A stretch of DNA of 29,943 bases, from the IMG/VR virus record IMGVR_UViG_2740892488_000007, one strand, 5' to 3'. A model generated the notes under the pieces. That model was not told where the DNA came from, searched no databases, and saw nothing but the letters and a program-made list of their open reading frames with translations. The translations under genes were made by a program, and so were the position numbers. The stretch is from a virus (Duplodnaviria; Heunggongvirae; Uroviricota; Caudoviricetes). Within the stretch, counting starts at the first letter, position 1. Every line of letters begins with the position of its first letter. This document shows, piece by piece, positions 2,712 to 12,501 of this stretch.

Positions 2712-3010
2712 TGTCCTGTTCTCATTCAGTTGTATTACTGAATAACGCCTTAAAAATCGCCGTTATGAAAAATGGCGATTTGTCTCTTATTCAACTTTGT
2801 CTTGATAAAGAAAAACGCGACATCACTGAATCTGTTATCGCGATTTATCAGAATGAATTAAACCTCCTGTCTGATGTGGTCAATTTACTTGTTAAACGCG
2901 CTGTATTCCACAAGCAAATTTCCTCCGTGGATGAACTGACAAAATTAACGACAGAACTTGCCAGTTATTGCGCTGATGTATCCAGGAAACTTAACGATAA
3001 AAGGAGCTGA
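2711..3010 (+). CDS. hypothetical early protein
   Basis: ATG at 2711 preceded by GGAGG at 2699-2703 (the track start at 2708 is TTG). About 99 aa. Confidence 0.5.
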   Translation: MSCSHSVVLLNNALKIAVMKNGDLSLIQLCLDKEKRDITESVIAIYQNELNLLSDVVNLLVKRAVFHKQISSVDELTKLTTELASYCADVSRKLNDKRS

Positions 3011-3237: not shown

Positions 3238-3509
3238 GTATTCGTATTGAAATTGGCGAACGTTATGTCGTTACCAGTGACAGCTTTCAGTTTATTCTCC
3301 ACGAGAAAAAGAGAGCGGAAAGCGGTAAAAACGCCGGTCAGGAATGGCTGTCGGTGGTTGGTTATTACCCGAAATTAAGCCAGCTCGTTTCCGGCCTGAT
3401 GCATCACGATATTCTGACCGGAAGCGCAAAGTCTTTTGCTGATTTAAACGTGCAGGTTGAGCAACTCAGCAAGCGTTGTTCAGAGGCTTTTGGCTCATAT
3501 GGCCGTTAA
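3234..3509 (+). CDS. hypothetical early protein
   Basis: 91-aa ORF, ATG at 3234 with GGAG upstream; its 3' end overlaps the start of A. Confidence 0.5.
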   Translation: MSIRIEIGERYVVTSDSFQFILHEKKRAESGKNAGQEWLSVVGYYPKLSQLVSGLMHHDILTGSAKSFADLNVQVEQLSKRCSEAFGSYGR

Positions 3510-5775
3510 AGCCTCCGGGCGTTTTGTCCCTCCGTCAGCATTTGCCGCAGGCACCGGTAAGGCGTTTACCGGTGCTTATGCATGGAACGCGCCACGCGAG
3601 GCTGTCGGGCGCGAAAGACCCCTTACACGTGACGAGATGCGTCAGGTGCAAGGGGTTTTATCCACGATTAACCGCCTGCCTTACTTTTTGCGCTCGCTGT
3701 TTACTTCACGCTATGACTACATCCGGCGCAATAAAAGCCCGGTGCACGGGTTTTATTTTCTCACATCCACTTTTCAGCGTCGTTTATGGCCGCGCATTGA
3801 GCGTGTGAATCAGCGCCATGAAATGAACACCGACGCGTCGTTGCTGTTTCTGGCAGAGCGTGGCCATTATGCGCGTCTGCCGGGGATGAATGACAAGGAG
3901 CTGAAAAAGTTTGCCGCCCGTATCTCATCGCAGCTTTTCATGATGTATGAGGAACTCTGCGATGCCTGGGTGGATGCGCATGGCGAAAAAGAATCGCTGT
4001 TTACGGATGAGGCGCAGGCTCACCTCTATGGTCATGTTGCTGGTGCTGCACGTGCTTTCAATATTTCCCCTCTCTACTGGAAAAAATACCGTAAAGGGCA
4101 GATGACCACGAGGCAGGCATATTCTGCCATTGCCCGTCTGTTTAACGATGAGTGGTGGACCCATCAGCTTAAAGGCCAGCGTATGCGCTGGCATGAGGCG
4201 TTACTGATTGCTGTCGGGGAGGTCAATAAAGACCGTTCTCCTTATGCCAGTAAACATGCCATTCGTGATGTGCGTGCACGCCGCCAGGCAAATCTGGAAT
4301 TTCTTAAATCGTGTGATCTCGAAAACAGGGAAACCGGCGAGCGCATCGACCTTATCAGTAAGGTGATGGGCAGTATTTCTAATCCTGAAATTCGCCGGAT
4401 GGAGCTGATGAACACCATTGCCGGTATTGAGCGTTACGCCGCAGCAGAGGGTGATGTGGGGATGTTTATCACGCTGACCGCGCCGTCAAAGTATCACCCG
4501 ACACGTCAGGTCAGAAAAGGCGAAAGTAAAACCGTCCAGCTAAATCACGGCTGGAACGATGAGGCATTTAATCCAAAGGATGCGCAGCGTTATCTCTGCC
4601 GTATCTGGAGCCTGATGCGCACGGCATTCAAGGATAATGATTTACAGGTCTACGGTTTGCGTGTCGTCGAGCCACACCACGACGGAACGCCGCACTGGCA
4701 TATGATGCTTTTTTGTAATCCGCGCCAGCGTAACCAGATTATCGAAATCATGCGTCGCTATGCGCTCAAAGAGGATGGCGACGAAAGAGGAGCCGCGCGA
4801 AACCGTTTTCAGGCAAAACACCTTAACCGGGGCGGTGCTGCGGGGTATATCGCGAAATACATCTCAAAAAACATCGACGGCTATGCACTGGATGGTCAGC
4901 TCGATAACGATACCGGCAGGCCGCTGAAAGACACTGCTGCGGCTGTTACCGCATGGGCGTCAACGTGGCGCATCCCGCAATTTAAAACGGTTGGTCTGCC
5001 GACAATGGGGGCTTACCGTGAACTACGCAAATTGCCGCGCGGCGTCAGCATTGCTGATGAGTTTGACGAGCGCGTCGAGGCTGCACGCGCCGCCGCAGAC
5101 AGTGGTGATTTTGCGTTGTATATCAGCGCGCAGGGTGGGGCAAATGTCCCGCGCGATTGTCAGACTGTCAGGGTCGCCCGTAGCCCGTCGGATGACGTTA
5201 ACGAGTACGAGGAAGAGGTCGAGAGGGTGGTCGGCATTTACGCGCCGCATCTCGGCGCGCGTCATATTCATATCACCAGAACGACGGACTGGCGCATTGT
5301 GCCGAAAGTTCCGGTCGTTGAGCCTTTGACTTTAAAAAGCGGCATCGCCGCGCCTCGGAGTCCTGTCAATAACTGTGGAAAGCTCACCGGTGGTGATACT
5401 TCGTTACCGGCTCCCACACCTTCTGAGCACGCCGCAGCAGTGCTTAATCTGGTTGATGACGATGTTATCGAATGGAATGACCCGGAGGTCGTGAGGGCGC
5501 TCAGGGGCGCATTAAAACACGACCGGAGAACGCCAAACCGTCAGCAAAGAAACGGAAGCCCGTTAAAACCGCATGAAATTGCACCATCGGCCAGACTGAC
5601 CCGGTCGGAACGATTGCAAATTACCCGTATCCGCGTTGATCTCGCTCAGAACGGTATCAGGCCGCAACGATGGGAGCTTGAGGCGCTGGCGCGTGGCGCG
5701 ACCGTAAATTATGACGGGAAACCTTTCACTTATCAGGTCGCTGATGATTGGCCGGGATTTTTGTTACCCATTTGA
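3499..5775 (+). CDS. A: rolling-circle replication initiator (P2 gpA-like)
   Basis: Long ORF (758 aa from ATG at 3499; the track ORF opens at 3457). HUH-type motif PHWHMMLF and tyrosine pair GYIAKYISK. Length near the 761 aa of P2 A. Confidence 0.9.
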   Translation: MAVKASGRFVPPSAFAAGTGKAFTGAYAWNAPREAVGRERPLTRDEMRQVQGVLSTINRLPYFLRSLFTSRYDYIRRNKSPVHGFYFLTSTFQRRLWPRIERVNQRHEMNTDASLLFLAERGHYARLPGMNDKELKKFAARISSQLFMMYEELCDAWVDAHGEKESLFTDEAQAHLYGHVAGAARAFNISPLYWKKYRKGQMTTRQAYSAIARLFNDEWWTHQLKGQRMRWHEALLIAVGEVNKDRSPYASKHAIRDVRARRQANLEFLKSCDLENRETGERIDLISKVMGSISNPEIRRMELMNTIAGIERYAAAEGDVGMFITLTAPSKYHPTRQVRKGESKTVQLNHGWNDEAFNPKDAQRYLCRIWSLMRTAFKDNDLQVYGLRVVEPHHDGTPHWHMMLFCNPRQRNQIIEIMRRYALKEDGDERGAARNRFQAKHLNRGGAAGYIAKYISKNIDGYALDGQLDNDTGRPLKDTAAAVTAWASTWRIPQFKTVGLPTMGAYRELRKLPRGVSIADEFDERVEAARAAADSGDFALYISAQGGANVPRDCQTVRVARSPSDDVNEYEEEVERVVGIYAPHLGARHIHITRTTDWRIVPKVPVVEPLTLKSGIAAPRSPVNNCGKLTGGDTSLPAPTPSEHAAAVLNLVDDDVIEWNDPEVVRALRGALKHDRRTPNRQQRNGSPLKPHEIAPSARLTRSERLQITRIRVDLAQNGIRPQRWELEALARGATVNYDGKPFTYQVADDWPGFLLPI

Positions 5776-6035
5776 GTAAAAATACAGCGTGATTTTATAT
5801 GTCTTTGAATGGATTATGCGAAGCACCTCTAAGGTAGATGAGGAGCAATAGCGTGTTGAATCAGAAGGCTAAATTGTATTGAATCGTTAGCATGTAATTG
5901 AAGGCAGCTATTTGATTCGAGTCATAAAAGAGCATCTATTTCGGTTAATAAAACCATTGCGAGTGACTTTATGTCGAAGCATAATTCATCTCGAGCGAAG
6001 TCTTGCTAGTCTTTCATCGGATTGATGACGGGCGC

Positions 6036-6067
6036 AAAAAAAACCACCCTGGCAGGTGGTTTTTTTT
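6036..6067. terminator. bidirectional rho-independent terminator
   Basis: A8 (6036-6043), stem CCACC (6044-6048), loop CTGGCA, stem GGTGG (6055-6059), T8 (6060-6067). Works in both orientations; lies after gene A on + and 12 nt after the stop of the 37-aa ORF on -. Confidence 0.65.
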
Positions 6068-6079
6068 GTTTGAAGCATA

Positions 6080-6193
6080 CTAAAGAAAAATACTTACATG
6101 GATATTACTGACGTTTACTGACAAACCACTCGGACTACCATATGGATAGCCAAAGAGGGCCAGAACGAGAATGCAGTAATAGCACTTCTTCAT
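6080..6193 (-). CDS. 37-aa hydrophobic small protein (type I toxin-like peptide)
   Basis: ATG at 6193-6191 preceded by a perfect AGGAGG (reverse complement of 6197-6202), TAG stop at 6082-6080. Translation MKKCYYCILVLALFGYPYGSPSGLSVNVSNIHVSIFL: Lys-Lys N-terminus followed by a hydrophobic stretch. Terminator follows immediately. Too short to appear in the ORF track. Confidence 0.5.
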   Translation of the reverse strand: MKKCYYCILVLALFGYPYGSPSGLSVNVSNIHVSIFL

Positions 6194-6848
6194 ATCGCCT
6201 CCTGTAAGCAGAGGGCAATTTCCGCCGATATATGCGCTTCTAAGGCGGAGTGACTATTGAGCGAAGTCTTGCCCTGAAATAATGCTCTGTTTAAACGCAA
6301 AGTGATCTGGCATATCACCGAACAGAGGACCTGAACAACACAACATATAGTATGTCGTTGTTTCTGGTTGCATTTTATGTTGTGTAATACTGGTTTTGCA
6401 TCAAGGATGTTTGAGCTTTTTTTGATATAGCTCAAAGTAAAAAGCAGAGACTACGGATGATAAGGTCTTGAAAGCAATGTAAATTTTTTAAAGTTGTGAG
6501 TGGCTAGAAATGCACAGTTTCAATATGGCGGATTTAAACAAGTAATTAAAAATAGCGACATAAATTCCAATAAAATCATTAAGTTGCGTTTTCTGTGGAA
6601 ACTTCGGTGACTCTGAAATTTTCTTTTAGTGTCGCTGAGGTTTAACAACGCGCTGCGCAAGTAGTTAGTGTTTTTTTAACTCAATATTCTGATTTATAAG
6701 GTTTTTTATAAATCGTGGACTGGTTGCGCGTATTCATCTCGTGTTATCAGCAAAGATAAGCTCTATATGCAGAACGGAATGCATATATGATGTCGAAAAT
6801 GTTATGGGAAAACGTGGATTAGTGTTATAGTAATGGCTGAAAAACAGC

Positions 6849-6877
6849 CTTGACATAAAATAACAACTGTGATATGG
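6849..6877 (+). promoter_or_regulatory. putative sigma70-like promoter for the ImmA-like gene
   Basis: Perfect -35 TTGACA at 6849-6854, 17-bp spacer, weak -10 TATGGC at 6872-6877; about 40 bp upstream of the AGGAGG RBS at 6905-6910. Confidence 0.3.
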
Positions 6878-6915
6878 CTGTGCATACTTAACTTTTTTTA
6901 ACGTAGGAGGCAACC

Positions 6916-7401
6916 ATGAGCTATGCAGCTAAAAAACTGCTTGACCGCTATTGGGATCGCCGACTACCTGTCGATCCGTTTAAGCTTGCTAAAGCGTGGG
7001 GTGCTCGTGTTGAAGCACTTGAGGAATCGGCTTATAACAACGATGGGTTAAGCGGTCTGGCTGTCATCAAAAAGGGTGTCCATAGGATTTATTTTGATTC
7101 TAGTGAACATTCTAATCGTCAACGTTTTACTGTTGCACACGAGTTAGGTCATCATGTGCTGGGGCATACCCAGGACGGAGAGTACCATCGGGATAATGTC
7201 GGGAATTATTCAACAGGTGCTCGTGATTACCGTGAGGTTGAAGCAAACAAGTTTGCTGCTGAGTTGTTAATGCCTGAGTCTGCTATACGTCAATTGGTAT
7301 CCAGAGAAGGTATTGATAGCACTTTGAGATTAGCAAGCATCTTTAATGTATCAGAAGCCGCTATGCATTGGCGCTTAAAGAGCTTAGGAATGGCTTATTA
7401 A
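6916..7401 (+). CDS. ImmA/IrrE-family (HEXXH) zinc metallopeptidase, standalone
   Basis: 161-aa ORF with AGGAGG RBS and ATG at 6916. HEXXH motif HELGHHVLGH and downstream EVEANKFAAELLMPE, the signature of ImmA/IrrE-type peptidases. No HTH domain in this ORF. Confidence 0.7.
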   Translation: MSYAAKKLLDRYWDRRLPVDPFKLAKAWGARVEALEESAYNNDGLSGLAVIKKGVHRIYFDSSEHSNRQRFTVAHELGHHVLGHTQDGEYHRDNVGNYSTGARDYREVEANKFAAELLMPESAIRQLVSREGIDSTLRLASIFNVSEAAMHWRLKSLGMAY

Positions 7402-7430
7402 TTAGCCTTTAACTTTTAACCTGTTTAAAA

Positions 7431-7467
7431 TCACCTTTACGTTTGTACATGTAAGGGTGATTTTTTT
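7431..7467 (+). terminator. terminator-like hairpin / attenuator directly upstream of the membrane-protein gene
   Basis: Stem TCACCTTTA (7431-7439) pairs with TAAGGGTGA (7452-7460), with one G-U wobble; 12-nt loop; then T7 (7461-7467) running straight into the ATG at 7468. The only SD-like sequence (AAGGGTGA) is inside the 3' arm of the stem. Confidence 0.5.
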
Positions 7468-8067
7468 ATGGCTGATATTGATTTATCTGGACAGTCCCCA
7501 GAGCAAGGAACCACTCCTAAGGGCGATTCAGATCCTGATATCCTTATAAGGCGAGATAGACGGGATGGTATAGAGCGTAGAAGTATGCGATTAGTGCTCT
7601 CTGCCGTTGTGCTTTGTTTTGCTTGTACATTTCTATGGCAGGGGCTTAACTTTGCTTTGGCTGTTGGAAATGGCTTGCTGGAAGCGAAAAGCAGTATTGC
7701 CGCAGCGATAACACAAAAAGTAGATACACAAACTTGTGTTTCAGCAGAAAAATGTTCTGCTTTATCTTCGGATCCGAAGATGGCTGATGAGAGGATAACA
7801 CCATCTTCAGACACTAATAAAGTTAGAAAATCTATTTCTGGTTTATCCACCGATTGGTTATCGGCCAGTTCTCTAATAGCTATTGTTGCATTCATCCTTG
7901 GTGTGGGTTTAACTTTGCTTTTGACTCTTCTTAAATCAGCATTTCAACACCCGACAGATAAAGACTTTAGAACAAAGTCGACATCTAATACTATTGAGTT
8001 GGCCACGCCAATCAGTGAATTAATAATTGGTGTTCTGAATATAATTAAAGACAAACTATCTAAGTAA
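7468..8067 (+). CDS. small membrane protein with two predicted transmembrane helices
   Basis: 199-aa ORF. Charged N-terminus, hydrophobic segment LVLSAVVLCFACTFLWQGLNFALAV, polar middle, second hydrophobic segment LIAIVAFILGVGLTLLLTLL. AT-rich codon usage unlike the phage backbone. The start may instead be the internal Met at 7585. Confidence 0.55.
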   Translation: MADIDLSGQSPEQGTTPKGDSDPDILIRRDRRDGIERRSMRLVLSAVVLCFACTFLWQGLNFALAVGNGLLEAKSSIAAAITQKVDTQTCVSAEKCSALSSDPKMADERITPSSDTNKVRKSISGLSTDWLSASSLIAIVAFILGVGLTLLLTLLKSAFQHPTDKDFRTKSTSNTIELATPISELIIGVLNIIKDKLSK

Positions 8068-8109
8068 AGCATTAGTTGTGATTTTTTATTGGTTTTAGTG
8101 ATAATACAT

Positions 8110-8142
8110 CTCCAGTACTTATTGTTACTGGAGAGTATTTTT
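8110..8142 (+). terminator. rho-independent terminator after the peptidase / membrane-protein pair
   Basis: Perfect 8-bp stem CTCCAGTA (8110-8117) / TACTGGAG (8126-8133), 8-nt loop, followed by AGTATTTTT. Confidence 0.5.
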
Positions 8143-8351
8143 AGTCGTTTTATATTTTTAATGTTAGTGAATGATATTCACGAGAGTTCACGTTCGATGT
8201 GATGTAATCGGGGGCGTTAACACCAAGAATCGCAACGAGTAATCGGCAAATTAAAGCCTGCATTTGTTGTAATATGTCATCTCCATATTGATAATTGTTA
8301 ATAGTGGTAAAGCCAAGTGGTTGACCATGAAACATAGCTTCATGAAAGTTT

Positions 8352-9092
8352 TCATTGCGGATGTTTGTAATGTTTTTTTTTGCCTGTAACCCATGATGGT
8401 CGTGGTATTCCATAAGTTTTGCAGATCCACTTCAAGCGCCTGGAGTGATTTAGAGTCTTTTCTGTACACTTGTTCTTTTCTGCCCATGTTAAAGCAAAGC
8501 AACTATCCAGTGCCATATAAAGATACTGGAATTTTTCGAAGCTAAGGTATTGTGGGTTTTGGGATAAAAATAGTGCATGCACTATTGCTGCTATATTTAT
8601 TGGTGCGTGTTTGGTTTTTGTCTCGCTAGACATGTATTTGAGTGCTAATTCTATAACCTCTTTTTCAGAGCACTTGACCAGAATAAAGTCAGTTAATTTG
8701 CTGGGTTTTATTGGGGTTGCGTCTAAAAAACCGGCATCAGTAGTTGTTAATCTTATCCCTTTGAAAAAAGACAGACACCACACAGCAAAATTGAGAGTTT
8801 CTAGTGAAGATGTATTTTTTAATTTTAGTGAGTGTGTTTTGGGTAAGCCAAATACTCGTTGGCTAAAAGGCATTGTGGATATGCCTCCATTGAGGTTATA
8901 TACTTCTTGGTTTCCTGGGTATATCCAACCGTTAATAACATTTCTGTGATTGTTTATAAGATTTGTTTTTTCCGCTAGACCGGGTAAAGTAAGTAAAGAA
9001 AAATCATCAGTTTCAACGTTAACTTCTACTGGATAGTATCCAAACTCAGCTTCAATATCATTGGATTGCTGTTCGTCAACTTTACCTTGCAT
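8352..9092 (-). CDS. hypothetical protein (hotspot cargo); frame may continue to 8150 through an A9 tract
   Basis: 246-aa ORF with ATG at 9092-9090 and GGAG RBS. No motif I recognise. AT-rich. The C-terminus ...GKKKHYKHPQ runs through A9 on the coding strand (T9 at 8373-8381 on +); with A8 the frame would continue for 73 more codons to the stop at 8150. Confidence 0.5.
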   Translation of the reverse strand: MQGKVDEQQSNDIEAEFGYYPVEVNVETDDFSLLTLPGLAEKTNLINNHRNVINGWIYPGNQEVYNLNGGISTMPFSQRVFGLPKTHSLKLKNTSSLETLNFAVWCLSFFKGIRLTTTDAGFLDATPIKPSKLTDFILVKCSEKEVIELALKYMSSETKTKHAPINIAAIVHALFLSQNPQYLSFEKFQYLYMALDSCFALTWAEKNKCTEKTLNHSRRLKWICKTYGIPRPSWVTGKKKHYKHPQ

Positions 9093-9520: not shown

Positions 9521-10556
9521 TCAGCCGTTGTCAGTGTCCAGTGAGTAGTTTTTAAAGCGGATGACCTCCTGACCGAGCCAGCCGTTTATCTCGCGGATCC
9601 TGTCCTGTAGCGGGATAAGCTCATTGCGGACAAAGACCTTTGCCACTTTCTCAATATCACCCAGCGACCCGACGTTCTCCGGCTTGCCGCCCATCAACTG
9701 AAAGGGGATGCGGTGCGCGTCCAGCAGGTCAGCGGCGCTGGCTTTTTTTGATATTAAAAAATCGTCCTTCGTTGCCACTTCACTGAGCGGGATAATTTTG
9801 ATGCCGTCGGCTTTCCCCTGTGGGGCATAGAGAAACAGATTTTTAAAGTTGTTGCGGCCTTTCGACTTCACCATGTTTTCGCGGAGCATTTCGATATCGT
9901 TGCGATCCTGCACGGCATCGGTGACGTACATGATGTATCCGGCATGAGCACCGTTTTCGTAATACTTGCGGCGGAACAGCGTGGCTGATTCATTCAGCCA
10001 GGCAGAGTTAAGGGCGCTGAGATATTCCGGCAGGCCGTACAGCTCCTGATTAATATCCGGCTCCAGCAGGTGAAACACGGAACCGGGCGCGAAGGCTGTC
10101 GGTTCGTTGAAGGACGGCACCCACCAGTAAACATCCTCCTCCACGCCACGGCGGGTATATTTTGCCGGTGAGGTTTCCAGTCTGATGACCTTACCGGTGG
10201 TGCTGTAACGCTTTTCCAGAAACGCATTACCGAACACCAGAAAATCCAGCACAAAGCGGCTGAAATCCTGCTGGGACAGCCACGGATGCGGGATAAATGT
10301 CGAGGCCAGAATATTACGTTTGACGTAAATCGGTGAGCTGTGATGCACGGCAGCACGCAGGCTTTTTGCCAGACCAGTAAAGCTGACCGGTGGTTCATAC
10401 CATCTGCCGTTACTGATGCACTCGACGTAATCCAGAATGTCACGGCGGTCGAGTACCGGCACCGGCTCACCAAAGGTGAATGCTTCCATTTTCGGGGCGC
10501 TGGCGGTCATTTTTTTTTGCCGCAGGTTGCTGTGTTTTCCCTTTTTTCTTGCTCAT
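9521..10556 (-). CDS. Q: portal protein (P2 gpQ-like); N-terminal 15 codons out of frame at a T9 run
   Basis: 329-aa body ORF (9521-10510). An upstream ATG at 10556-10554 overlaps the P stop and has a GGAG RBS; it reads MSKKKGKTQQPAAKK and then falls out of frame at T9 (10510-10518). With T8 the protein would be 344 aa, the length I recall for P2 Q. Confidence 0.8.
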
Positions 10557-12328
10557 CAGTAAAACTCCAGAATGGTGGATGTCAGCGGGGTGCTGATACC
10601 GGCGGTGAGTGGCTCATTTAACAGGGCGTGCATGGTCGCCCAGGCGAGGTCGGCGTGGCTGGCTTCCTCGCTGCGGCTGGCCTCATAGGTGGCGCTGCGT
10701 CCGCTGCTGGTCATGGTCTTGCGGATAGCCATAAACGAGCTGGTGATGTCGGTGGCGCTGACGTCGTATTCCAGACAGCCACGGCGGATAACGTCTTTTG
10801 CCTTGAGCACCATTGCGGTTTTCATTTCCGGCGTGTAGCGGATATCACGCGCGGCGGGATAGAACGAGCGCACGAGCTGGAACACGCCGACACCGAGGCC
10901 GGTGGCATCAATTCCGATGTATTCGACGTTGTATTTTTCGGTGAGTTTGCGGATGGATTCAGCCTGGGTGGCAAAGTCCATGCCTTTCCACTGGTGACGC
11001 TCAAGTATTCTGAATTTGCCACCGGCCACCACCGGCGGTGCCAGCACCACGCATCCGGCGCTGTCGCCACGGTGTGACGGGTCGTAACCAATCCATACAG
11101 GGCGGGAGCCGAACGGATTGGCGGCAAACGGCGCATAGTCTTCCCATTCTTCCAGCGTATCGACCATGCAGCGTTGCAGCTCCTCGAACGGGAACACCGA
11201 CGCCTTGTCGTCAACAAATTCACACATGAACAGGTTTTTAAAATCGTCGGCGCTGTTTTCGCGTTTAAGCTGCTCAATGTCGAACAGCGTGCAGCCACCT
11301 TTCAGGGCGTCCTCAATGGTGACAATCTGCCGCCACTGGCCGTCCGCACAGAGAAGCCCACCGGCAAGGGCGTTATGACTGACGTCGATTTCCACACGTT
11401 CGGCGGCGCTGGCGCGTCCCCGGTTGAACAGTTCACCCGACCAGAACGGGTAGGCGTCGTGCGCCAGCGTGGATGGGGTGGAGAAATAGGTCGAACGCAG
11501 GTGACTCTGTGAGGCCATACCTGATGCCACCTTACGCAGTACCTGAAAATTCGGGATCCAGAAAATCTCATCGACGTACAGGTCGCCGTTATGGCTCTGT
11601 GCGGTGTTGGAGTTGGTGCCGAGAAAAATCAGTTTTGCGCCGTTATTGCCCAGGACAATCGGGTCACCGGTCAGGTCAACGTCAACCAGACGGGCAAAGG
11701 CGATGATGTATTCGCGGAACACATACGCCTGCGTTTTACTGGCCGACAGAAAAATCTGGTTATGACCGGTTTTCAGGGCGCGCAGCAGCGCCTCGCGGGA
11801 AAAATAAAACGTTGCGCCAATCTGGCGGGATTTCAGAATATCGCGGATGCGGTGCTCAAGCCCGGCGCGATACCAGTGCAGCTGATAGTCGAAAGACTGC
11901 TTAAAGAAAATCTGCTCCAGCTTTTCGATGGCCTCGTCACTGAAAAAATTCTTTTTCGGTTTGCGACGCCCGCCTTTGTTGCGGTTAGCGACGTTCGGAT
12001 TAAGGTCTGCCTCGTTGCCGGTCTGACTGTAGCGGTTGACCCGTGCCAGTCGTTCAATCTGGCGTCCGAGCAGGTCAATTTCCTTGAAGTCACCGCCGGT
12101 TTTCTGCGGTTTGATGATGAGCTGGGTCAGTCGCGCTTCCAGACTCATTTCGACACGGCTGATGGGGGCAACGCTGTCCCAGCCGTCGCGCTGTTTCCAG
12201 CTCTGCACCGTCGGGCGTTTCATCTGCAACATGGCGGCAATCTGCGGCACGGAAAACCCCTGCCAGTACAGCAGCGCCGCCTGACGACGCGGGTCGTGTA
12301 AAAGAGTGGTGTCTGTGGTGATGGTCAT
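10556..12328 (-). CDS. P: terminase large (ATPase) subunit (P2 gpP-like)
   Basis: 590 aa from ATG at 12328-12326 (the track ORF opens at a TTG at 12358). Divergent from O; length equals P2 P. Confidence 0.85.
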   Translation of the reverse strand: MTITTDTTLLHDPRRQAALLYWQGFSVPQIAAMLQMKRPTVQSWKQRDGWDSVAPISRVEMSLEARLTQLIIKPQKTGGDFKEIDLLGRQIERLARVNRYSQTGNEADLNPNVANRNKGGRRKPKKNFFSDEAIEKLEQIFFKQSFDYQLHWYRAGLEHRIRDILKSRQIGATFYFSREALLRALKTGHNQIFLSASKTQAYVFREYIIAFARLVDVDLTGDPIVLGNNGAKLIFLGTNSNTAQSHNGDLYVDEIFWIPNFQVLRKVASGMASQSHLRSTYFSTPSTLAHDAYPFWSGELFNRGRASAAERVEIDVSHNALAGGLLCADGQWRQIVTIEDALKGGCTLFDIEQLKRENSADDFKNLFMCEFVDDKASVFPFEELQRCMVDTLEEWEDYAPFAANPFGSRPVWIGYDPSHRGDSAGCVVLAPPVVAGGKFRILERHQWKGMDFATQAESIRKLTEKYNVEYIGIDATGLGVGVFQLVRSFYPAARDIRYTPEMKTAMVLKAKDVIRRGCLEYDVSATDITSSFMAIRKTMTSSGRSATYEASRSEEASHADLAWATMHALLNEPLTAGISTPLTSTILEFY

Positions 12329-12501
12329 GAATACCTCGCCGTGATGAATACACGGCAAGGCTACTGAGTCGCGCCCCGCGATTCGCTAAGGTGCTGTTGT
12401 GTCAGTGATAAGCCATCCGGGACTGATGGCGGAGGATGCGCATCGTCGGGAAACTGATGCCGACATGTGACTCCTCTAATCACTATTCAGGACTCCTGAC
12501 A

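Follow-up and report, generated by a model that had tools for sequence, protein, structure and literature searches.

A terminator-like hairpin containing the predicted ribosome-binding site of the next gene in a mobile peptidase–membrane protein gene pair

The hairpin between the peptidase and membrane protein genes

We analyzed a 29,943-nt stretch of DNA (hereafter the window) from the Caudoviricetes virus record IMGVR_UViG_2740892488_000007 of IMG/VR, which is a P2-like (Peduovirus) prophage of Escherichia coli. The subject is a hairpin between two genes on the plus strand, the upstream one encoding an ImmA/IrrE-type peptidase (Peptidase_M78 family) and the downstream one a protein with two transmembrane segments (2-TM protein), the putative effector of the pair. 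The positions of these and the neighboring features are listed in Table 1.

Table 1. Features of the window described in this study
Feature	Positions	Strand	Remarks
Replication gene A	3457-5775	+	PF05840
Extended −10 element TGtTATAGT	6823-6831	+	Candidate module promoter, by sequence reading only
TTGACA	6850-6855	+	Downstream of the extended −10 element; conserved
Shine–Dalgarno (SD) sequence of the peptidase gene, AGGAGG	6905-6910	+	5 nt before ATG at 6916
ImmA/IrrE (Peptidase_M78) gene	6916-7401	+	161 aa; Pfam PF06114, 3.8e-21
−10-like hexamer TAAAAT	7426-7431	+	Base of 5′ arm; also within the A-tract pairing with the U-tract
Hairpin, 5′ arm	7427-7442	+	Contains AUCACCUUUA, a near copy of the 16S rRNA 3′ end (anti-SD mimic)
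Hairpin, loop	7443-7448	+	6 nt
Hairpin, 3′ arm	7449-7464	+	Contains SD-like AAGGGUGA(U) at 7453-7461
U-tract (T7)	7461-7467	+	Predicted terminator tail and SD–AUG spacer
2-TM protein gene	7468-8067	+	199 aa; phrog_8096 (PHROG match 7e-125)
Bidirectional terminator-like hairpin	8109-8134	both	Between the 2-TM gene and the convergent minus-strand gene; terminator scan
Third island gene	8150-9092	−	313 aa; phrog_5937; convergent to the 2-TM gene
Portal gene	9521-10510	−	
Large terminase gene	10556-12358	−	

The peptidase consists of the M78 domain only and has no helix-turn-helix (HTH) domain. It matches the PADLOC models of capP (1.1e-30) and RmrA (6e-17, the peptidase part only) and the Protein Data Bank (PDB) structure of CapP (7t5t, 7.6e-7), and is named "ImmA/IrrE family metallo-endopeptidase" in RefSeq. 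Its open reading frame (ORF) ends with TAA, and further in-frame stops follow. The 2-TM protein has no match in Pfam, PADLOC or NCBIfam, while 52 homologs are found in Enterobacterales and Vibrio; scans of the genome contigs with the protein and with the alignment as queries gave no matches. In the AlphaFold model, whose confidence is low (predicted local distance difference test score, 64; predicted template modeling score, 0.38), the 2-TM protein has two long helices plus one at the C terminus.

RNAfold predicts 16 consecutive base pairs between the two arms, two of which are G·U. A preliminary description of this DNA had reported a hairpin with a 9-bp stem; the hairpin is real, and the stem length has to be revised to 16 bp. 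The energy is −18.4 kcal/mol, against −5.0 ± 2.2 kcal/mol in dinucleotide shuffles (z = −6.2), and none of the 200 shuffles is as stable. The outer four pairs are formed by A7427-7430 with the first four U of the U-tract, and the core stem (7431-7460, 12 bp), for which −14.1 kcal/mol is obtained, is enclosed by them. The stem begins 26 nt past the peptidase stop. The same arms are given by a repeat finder (I3), both the minimum free energy and the centroid structures retain the hairpin, and, among the 1,982 46-nt windows with a GC content of 0.35 or less that the two strands of the 29.9-kb window contain, its stability ranks in the top three or four. A search of Rfam gave no family at E ≤ 1. 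A consensus terminator scan of the window does not list the hairpin, probably because the maximal stem takes in part of the U-tract. The core stem scores +19.4 on the d'Aubenton-Carafa-type scale, where values above 0 are terminator-like; the score was calculated by our own re-implementation with current energy parameters and is approximate.

The position of the SD-like sequence should be noted. As the preliminary description stated, the peptidase stop at 7401 is followed by seven T at 7461-7467, which directly abut the ATG at 7468-7470 with no spacer, and the 3′ arm includes the sole SD-like sequence (AAGGGTGA, 7453-7460). Within the 25 nt preceding the ATG, it is this arm that pairs best with the 16S rRNA 3′ end (−8.9 kcal/mol), the duplex ending 5 nt short of the AUG. 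For the peptidase SD, the corresponding duplex energy is −10.2 kcal/mol. The energy for opening the SD is 6.9 kcal/mol for the peptidase gene versus 15.6 kcal/mol for the 2-TM gene in a read-through transcript.

Conservation of the arrangement and of the start codon

The 2-TM gene follows a Peptidase_M78 gene of 161-164 aa in every locus of which the DNA was retrieved. The pair is found in P2 hotspots, a P1-like phage, plasmid-like contigs, Serratia and Pectobacterium islands, and Vibrio islands. The gap between the peptidase stop and the ATG is 64-74 nt in all but one subgroup. When the 95 nt upstream of the ATG are compared, the same layout is observed in about 22 distinct homologous loci, where the hairpins fall into three classes unrelated in sequence. 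Class A comprises Enterobacterales including the window, and has the form AAAUCACC-(inner stem)-loop-(inner stem)-GGUGAUUUUUU(U)(U)-AUG, that is, TCACC…GGTGA-U6-8-AUG. Class B, found with homologs of 24-30% identity, has the form AAAGCCACC-loop-GGUGGCUUUUUU(U)-AUG (GCCACC…GGTGGC-U6-7-AUG), and class C, found in Vibrio, has the form AAGCC(C/U)UCA-loop-UGAGGGCUUUUUA-AUG (GCCCTCA…TGAGGGC-U5A-AUG). The U-run is TTTTTA in class C and 6-8 T long in the two other classes, and a spacer of only 0-1 nt separates it from the AUG throughout. In every class, the 3′ arm is the strand that is rich in purines and resembles an SD (GGUGA, GGUGG or GAGGG). Terminator-type scores above 0 are obtained in about 20 of 24 loci; the exceptions include locus L019 and two failures of the trimming rule.

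Base pairing in class A was analyzed with 14 distinct sequences. Paired combinations occupy 88.8% of the cells, versus at most 67.6% with slid partners, and four pairs are changed on both sides, for example U-A to C-G in six sequences. The covariation score is 0.130 versus 0.066 ± 0.014 in shuffles, none of 500 of which reaches it, and slid controls give 0.058 or less. AUCACC and GGUGAU are invariant in the 14 sequences, while the inner stem positions co-vary. The inner stem of the window (UUUACGU / ACAUGUAAG) is unlike all the others and yet paired. The stem also differs between the classes by repeated double changes: counted from the stem base, the pairs in classes A, B and C are U-A, G-C and G-C; C-G throughout; A-U, C-G and C-G; and C-G, A-U and C-G. 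The loops (4-13 nt) are unconserved, their sequences varying among the loci. Because of G·U pairs, the plus-strand RNA is more stable than the minus-strand RNA in the window (−17.9 versus −11.5 kcal/mol) and in L041 (−11.6 versus −7.7 kcal/mol). A covariance model built from class A finds class B weakly (E 0.09-1.6), misses class C, and also matches the minus strand and unrelated terminators; owing to the matches to unrelated terminators, the alignment made with this model (A3) was left out of the pair counts. The arrangement pointed out in the preliminary description, a terminator-like hairpin with the SD in the 3′ arm and a U-tract abutting the start codon, is thus found in three hairpin classes and is under selection.

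The length of the T-run is 6, 7 or 8 among close relatives (L029, L013, L015, L025 and L032); L029 encodes a protein of 99% identity and yet has T6. A change in this length would alter both the terminator tail and the SD–AUG spacing.

The signals in front of the peptidase gene are also conserved. The sequence gtAGGAGGc(a/t)accATG is kept across class A (cgaAGGAGGctaccATG in L025), and GGGAGG or AAGGAG is present in classes B and C. TGnTATA(G/T)T and TTGACA upstream of the peptidase gene are common to the loci of subclass A1 and L022. The TGtTATAGT region is a probable module promoter as judged from its sequence, and a promoter scan made no call at 6823-6855. A conserved promoter-like element is present upstream of the peptidase gene only, which fits a single operon promoter before that gene.

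The start of the 2-TM protein had been placed at 7468 in the preliminary description, and this position, rather than the internal Met at 7585, was borne out. In codons 1-38, the differences from six aligned class A1 homologs at the three codon positions are, for example, 11/5/24, 13/6/23 and 15/5/28, and in comparisons with these close homologs there are about 1.3 to 2 times as many synonymous as non-synonymous changes; in the more distant subclass A2, the ratio is even or reversed. The N-terminal tails of the homologs range from 39 to 100 residues and are always in frame, and the ORFs always open at the ATG after the U-tract. Phage P2DC1 (OU784750, L003) is annotated from the internal Met at 3333 versus 3189 by the comparative start, and its DNA encodes MAEIDLSGQSP… directly 3′ of its own hairpin. 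The codon-position bias, the in-frame tails and the Thr that replaces the internal Met ("Met40") in L025 together indicate that translation begins at the ATG abutting the U-tract. Met 7585 as the sole start was rejected on the grounds that the N-terminal tail is coding, that L025 has Thr and that no consistent SD precedes the Met. A GTG start in the 3′ arm, which underlies gene calls beginning with "MVIFFM…", was also rejected, since it is in frame only with T8.

The internal Met (7585-7587) lies just before the first transmembrane segment in an (E/D)RRxMR motif, and 19 of the 20 homologs of classes A and B have retained it, L025 being the exception. It could be a second start for an isoform without the N-terminal tail, or merely a conserved residue. 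Public gene calls of the family are inconsistent, starting at the internal Met or at the GTG in the hairpin (P0010, P0012, P0016, P0018, P0022 and P0026). The comparison fixes the start of the phrog_8096 proteins, several public records of which begin at one of these two codons.

Interpretation of the hairpin and comparison with known systems

On balance, we regard it as probable from the sequence that the hairpin is a constitutive attenuator within the operon, which acts as an intrinsic terminator, provides the effector SD in its 3′ arm, and keeps the effector low relative to the peptidase. Attenuation of the membrane protein in both transcription and translation was the interpretation of the preliminary description, and it is supported in part, as the most economical reading. 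In our model, RNA polymerase starting at the module promoter, which precedes the peptidase gene, would meet a Rho-independent terminator (7431-7460, extended by A:U pairs to 7427-7464, with U7), and the terminated transcripts would end at about 7467-7469, containing the peptidase ORF but not the effector start codon. In read-through transcripts, the effector SD at the base of the 3′ arm would pair with the anti-SD-like AUCACC of the 5′ arm. Since just 7 nt separate the stem from the AUG beyond it, the start site would still be inside the polymerase when the hairpin is able to fold, and binding of the 30S subunit would be strongly disfavored. Ribosomes that finish the peptidase ORF would halt 26 nt before the stem and should leave it unmelted. 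The hidden effector SD and the strong, accessible AGGAGG of the peptidase gene would then give a high ratio of peptidase to membrane protein, like the excess of antitoxin in toxin–antitoxin operons. By analogy, an excess of peptidase fits toxin–antitoxin-like logic. Termination, translational repression and harm by the 2-TM protein are what we infer from the sequence.

Several observations weigh against this attenuator model. The stem is AU-rich in the window, with about 5 G-C pairs of 16, so that termination may be inefficient. L019 has a poor U-tract and a score below 0, and L014 has an apical C·A mismatch that is G·U on the minus strand. In L028 and L042, whose 2-TM proteins show 27% identity and whose gap is 30 nt (2971-3000), there is neither a terminator nor an SD, and in L059, which has a 43%-identical peptidase, a different gene for a transmembrane protein overlaps the peptidase stop by 11 nt (1955-1965). 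These three loci indicate that the hairpin is not obligatory in the wider family. The harmfulness of the 2-TM protein is an assumption, and a −10-like hexamer at the stem base is conserved and unexplained by the model. The distant modules that lack the hairpin may use other routes to weak or coupled downstream translation. More distant M78 peptidases (identity of 43% or less) have other neighbors and no such hairpin.

The −10-like hexamer is the basis of a different explanation, a switch between two transcripts, in which read-through transcripts are silenced and a short mRNA starting at about 7437-7440 from a weak or factor-dependent promoter with its −10 at the base of the 5′ arm frees the SD and supplies the effector, possibly conditionally (e.g., upon phage infection). 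Three of the four subclasses have a TAnnnT hexamer at a distance of 0-4 nt from the core stem, namely A1 (TAAAAT, TAGAAT), B (TACAAT, TAGAAT, TAATAT) and C (TATCCT), and the hexamer of A2 is TATAAA; in all classes, initiation 7 nt downstream would place the 5′ end of the transcript within the 5′ arm. The energy for opening the SD drops from 15.6 to 3.4 kcal/mol when the RNA begins at 7439, and such a mechanism is documented for homing-endonuclease genes of phage T4 (PMC2988022). However, matches to the −35 element reach at most 4/6 and are unconserved, there is no TGn extension, a 3-4-nt deletion in the window shifts the spacing to the sole conserved upstream block (CTTTAAC), and the stem base was not called by the promoter scan. 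In addition, a terminator whose U-tract pairs with an A-tract would have an A/T-rich flank in any case, and it is upstream of the peptidase gene that a good promoter-like element is conserved. A T4 late promoter (TATAAATA) or a MotA box at the stem was rejected, since the T4-late-like TATAAAT(C/T) occurs only in most of class A2 (not in L027) and in L041 and is absent from the window. We consider this switch rather improbable. A related proposal is that the hairpin is an infection-responsive gate of an abortive-infection-type toxin, silent on operon transcripts owing to the terminator and the occluded SD; the effector would be made only from a short transcript at the −10-like hexamer, or after antitermination or cleavage of the hairpin, with phage-altered transcription or RNA-processing machinery as the trigger. 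This gate is unlikely to be the function of the element; if it were, a cis-element and not a protein sensor would decide the timing of the membrane protein.

The attenuator model combines two activities, and each of them has to be considered alone. The hairpin could be a plain terminator or 3′-end stabilizer of the peptidase mRNA, with the effector set by read-through alone and the overlap with the ribosome-binding site (RBS) being a by-product of a compact intergenic region. The terminator-like shape and score in nearly all loci agree with this, and a U-tract abutting the AUG places the SD 5-9 nt upstream, in the 3′ arm, by geometry. However, the abutment within 0-1 nt is kept in three unrelated hairpin classes, all of which have the purine-rich SD-like arm as the 3′ arm, and GGUGAU/AUCACC is invariant while the remaining stem co-varies. 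Moreover, 25-35 unconserved nt lie between the peptidase stop and the stem, so that compaction does not force the abutment, and termination as the sole role seems doubtful to a similar degree as the gate. Conversely, the hairpin could be a translational operator only, terminating little, occluding the SD and using the U-run as a spacer and an S1 or standby site. Class A stems, with about 5 G-C pairs and a U-tract partly paired to the A-tract, and the high predicted opening cost are in line with this idea. Classes B and C are, however, canonical terminators with GC-rich short stems and U5-7, the scores exceed 0 in most loci, and the conserved U-runs of 6-8 are longer than an SD spacer needs; an operator without appreciable termination is quite unlikely. 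Both of these readings are partial versions of the attenuator model.

The invariant half-sites ATCACC…GGTGAT in class A might also suggest a DNA palindrome, serving as the operator of a dimeric protein or as a minus-strand terminator of an antisense RNA. The symmetry of the A-tract and the U-tract looks bidirectional, the minus-strand fold is equally stable in several loci, and the covariance model matches the minus strand as well. Against this, the module has no HTH or other DNA-binding gene, its peptidase being M78-only, and the half-sites are wholly different between classes while the pairing, the U-tract and the AUG position are kept. Owing to their G·U pairs, the window and L041 have a weaker minus-strand version, the minus-strand tails have only 2-4 U, and the promoter scan gave no minus-strand promoter-like site in 7468-7600. 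An antisense RNA, a minus-strand terminator and a DNA operator were rejected on these grounds, and we give a role at the DNA level very little credence. A leader peptide, an antiterminator and a riboswitch were also rejected, considering the lack of room (about 26 nt from the stop to the stem), of an alternative fold and of an Rfam match.

The hairpin resembles intra-operon Rho-independent attenuators in having a stem-loop and a U-tract soon after the upstream stop, in the same orientation and with a terminator-like score, and in that the downstream gene would need read-through. It differs from them in that the U-tract is the SD–AUG spacer, the 3′ arm is the SD, and the start codon is located at the predicted release point. 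Hairpins that sequester the RBS are known from the T4 genes e, soc and 49 and from fold-back inhibition in IS10. The T4 genes for I-TevI, I-TevII as well as I-TevIII, together with segB and mobE, also have such hairpins (PMC2988022). As in T4, the SD of a gene that may be harmful is paired in a stable hairpin, and upstream read-through transcripts would be poorly translated. In contrast, the T4 and IS10 elements have a mapped promoter in or after the 5′ arm that gives a translatable short mRNA, whereas only a weak −10-like hexamer is present here, and the T4 hairpins have no U-tract abutting the AUG. In riboswitch and leader-peptide platforms that combine a terminator with an SD-sequestering helix, one helix can likewise affect elongation and initiation; unlike in them, no aptamer, leader ORF or antiterminator pairing is found here, and the hairpin appears unregulated in cis.

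RosmerTA and CapH/CapP are similar to the gene pair in that an ImmA/IrrE-type Zn-peptidase lies beside a variable partner, on mobile elements and in defense hotspots. In RosmerTA, the ImmA-type peptidase domain of RmrA acts as the antitoxin (PMC10440598). However, RmrA has about 360-400 aa with an N-terminal HTH, as opposed to the M78-only protein of 161 aa here, and the matches to the RmrA profiles (357-400 positions long) begin only around position 140-215. None of the PADLOC models fits the 2-TM partner, nor does any known RmrT. Neither an HTH (CapH-like) gene nor genes of CBASS, the anti-phage signaling system based on cyclic oligonucleotides, were found in the island or in the other contexts examined. 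The lack of an HTH domain, of CapH or CBASS genes and of an RmrT match indicates that the module is not a member of RosmerTA or CapH/CapP.

Literature searches found no description of the peptidase and 2-TM protein module or of the hairpin. The kind of regulation is well known, and the hairpin is a new, well-conserved example of it in an uncharacterized module. It offers a compact case of a terminator whose 3′ arm and U-tract form the RBS of the next gene, together with natural compensatory variants in three classes. It also flags a widely mobile two-gene module as a candidate toxin–antitoxin or anti-phage system, in which the ratio of the products may be hard-wired in the RNA. Its value is that of an example and a lead, with no new principle.

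The prophage island and neighboring features

An island of low GC content, with about 33-44% as against about 53-58% on either side, separates gene A from the portal gene and contains the gene pair. This position is the P2 tin/old hotspot, which is a home of anti-phage systems (bioRxiv 10.1101/2021.01.21.427644). Over its entire length, the island is shared at about 99.8% identity by 46 complete E. coli genomes and one Salmonella phage record. RefSeq annotates three genes in it, the ImmA/IrrE metallo-endopeptidase and hypothetical genes for the 2-TM protein and for a convergent minus-strand protein. The third gene is not co-mobile with the peptidase and 2-TM pair. The Vibrio copies of the pair (L026, 1357-1932; L040, 358-927) adjoin a gene for a small serine recombinase (Resolvase). 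Small serine recombinase genes have been proposed as markers of defense loci in a study that mentions no peptidase-containing system (PLoS Biol 2026, PMC13552941).

The third island gene is intact in S65EC and other genomes, whereas in the window an additional base within a homopolymer run at 8373 interrupts it, as the result of a frameshift or a sequencing error. Conversely, the P2 gene A is intact in the window, and its annotation in S65EC (NZ_CP036245; L001, 725-3000), an E. coli strain with this prophage, marks it as frameshifted. The bidirectional terminator-like hairpin that precedes this gene in Table 1 is among the most stable low-GC structures of the window.

After gene A, a perfect 14-bp hairpin flanked by A8 and T8 (6035-6068) has the shape of a bidirectional terminator. 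It is adjoined by a minus-strand ORF of 37 aa (MKKCYYCILVLALFG…, 6080-6193), which is annotated in the Salmonella phage record. About 700 nt without a convincing ORF lie between this ORF and the peptidase gene.

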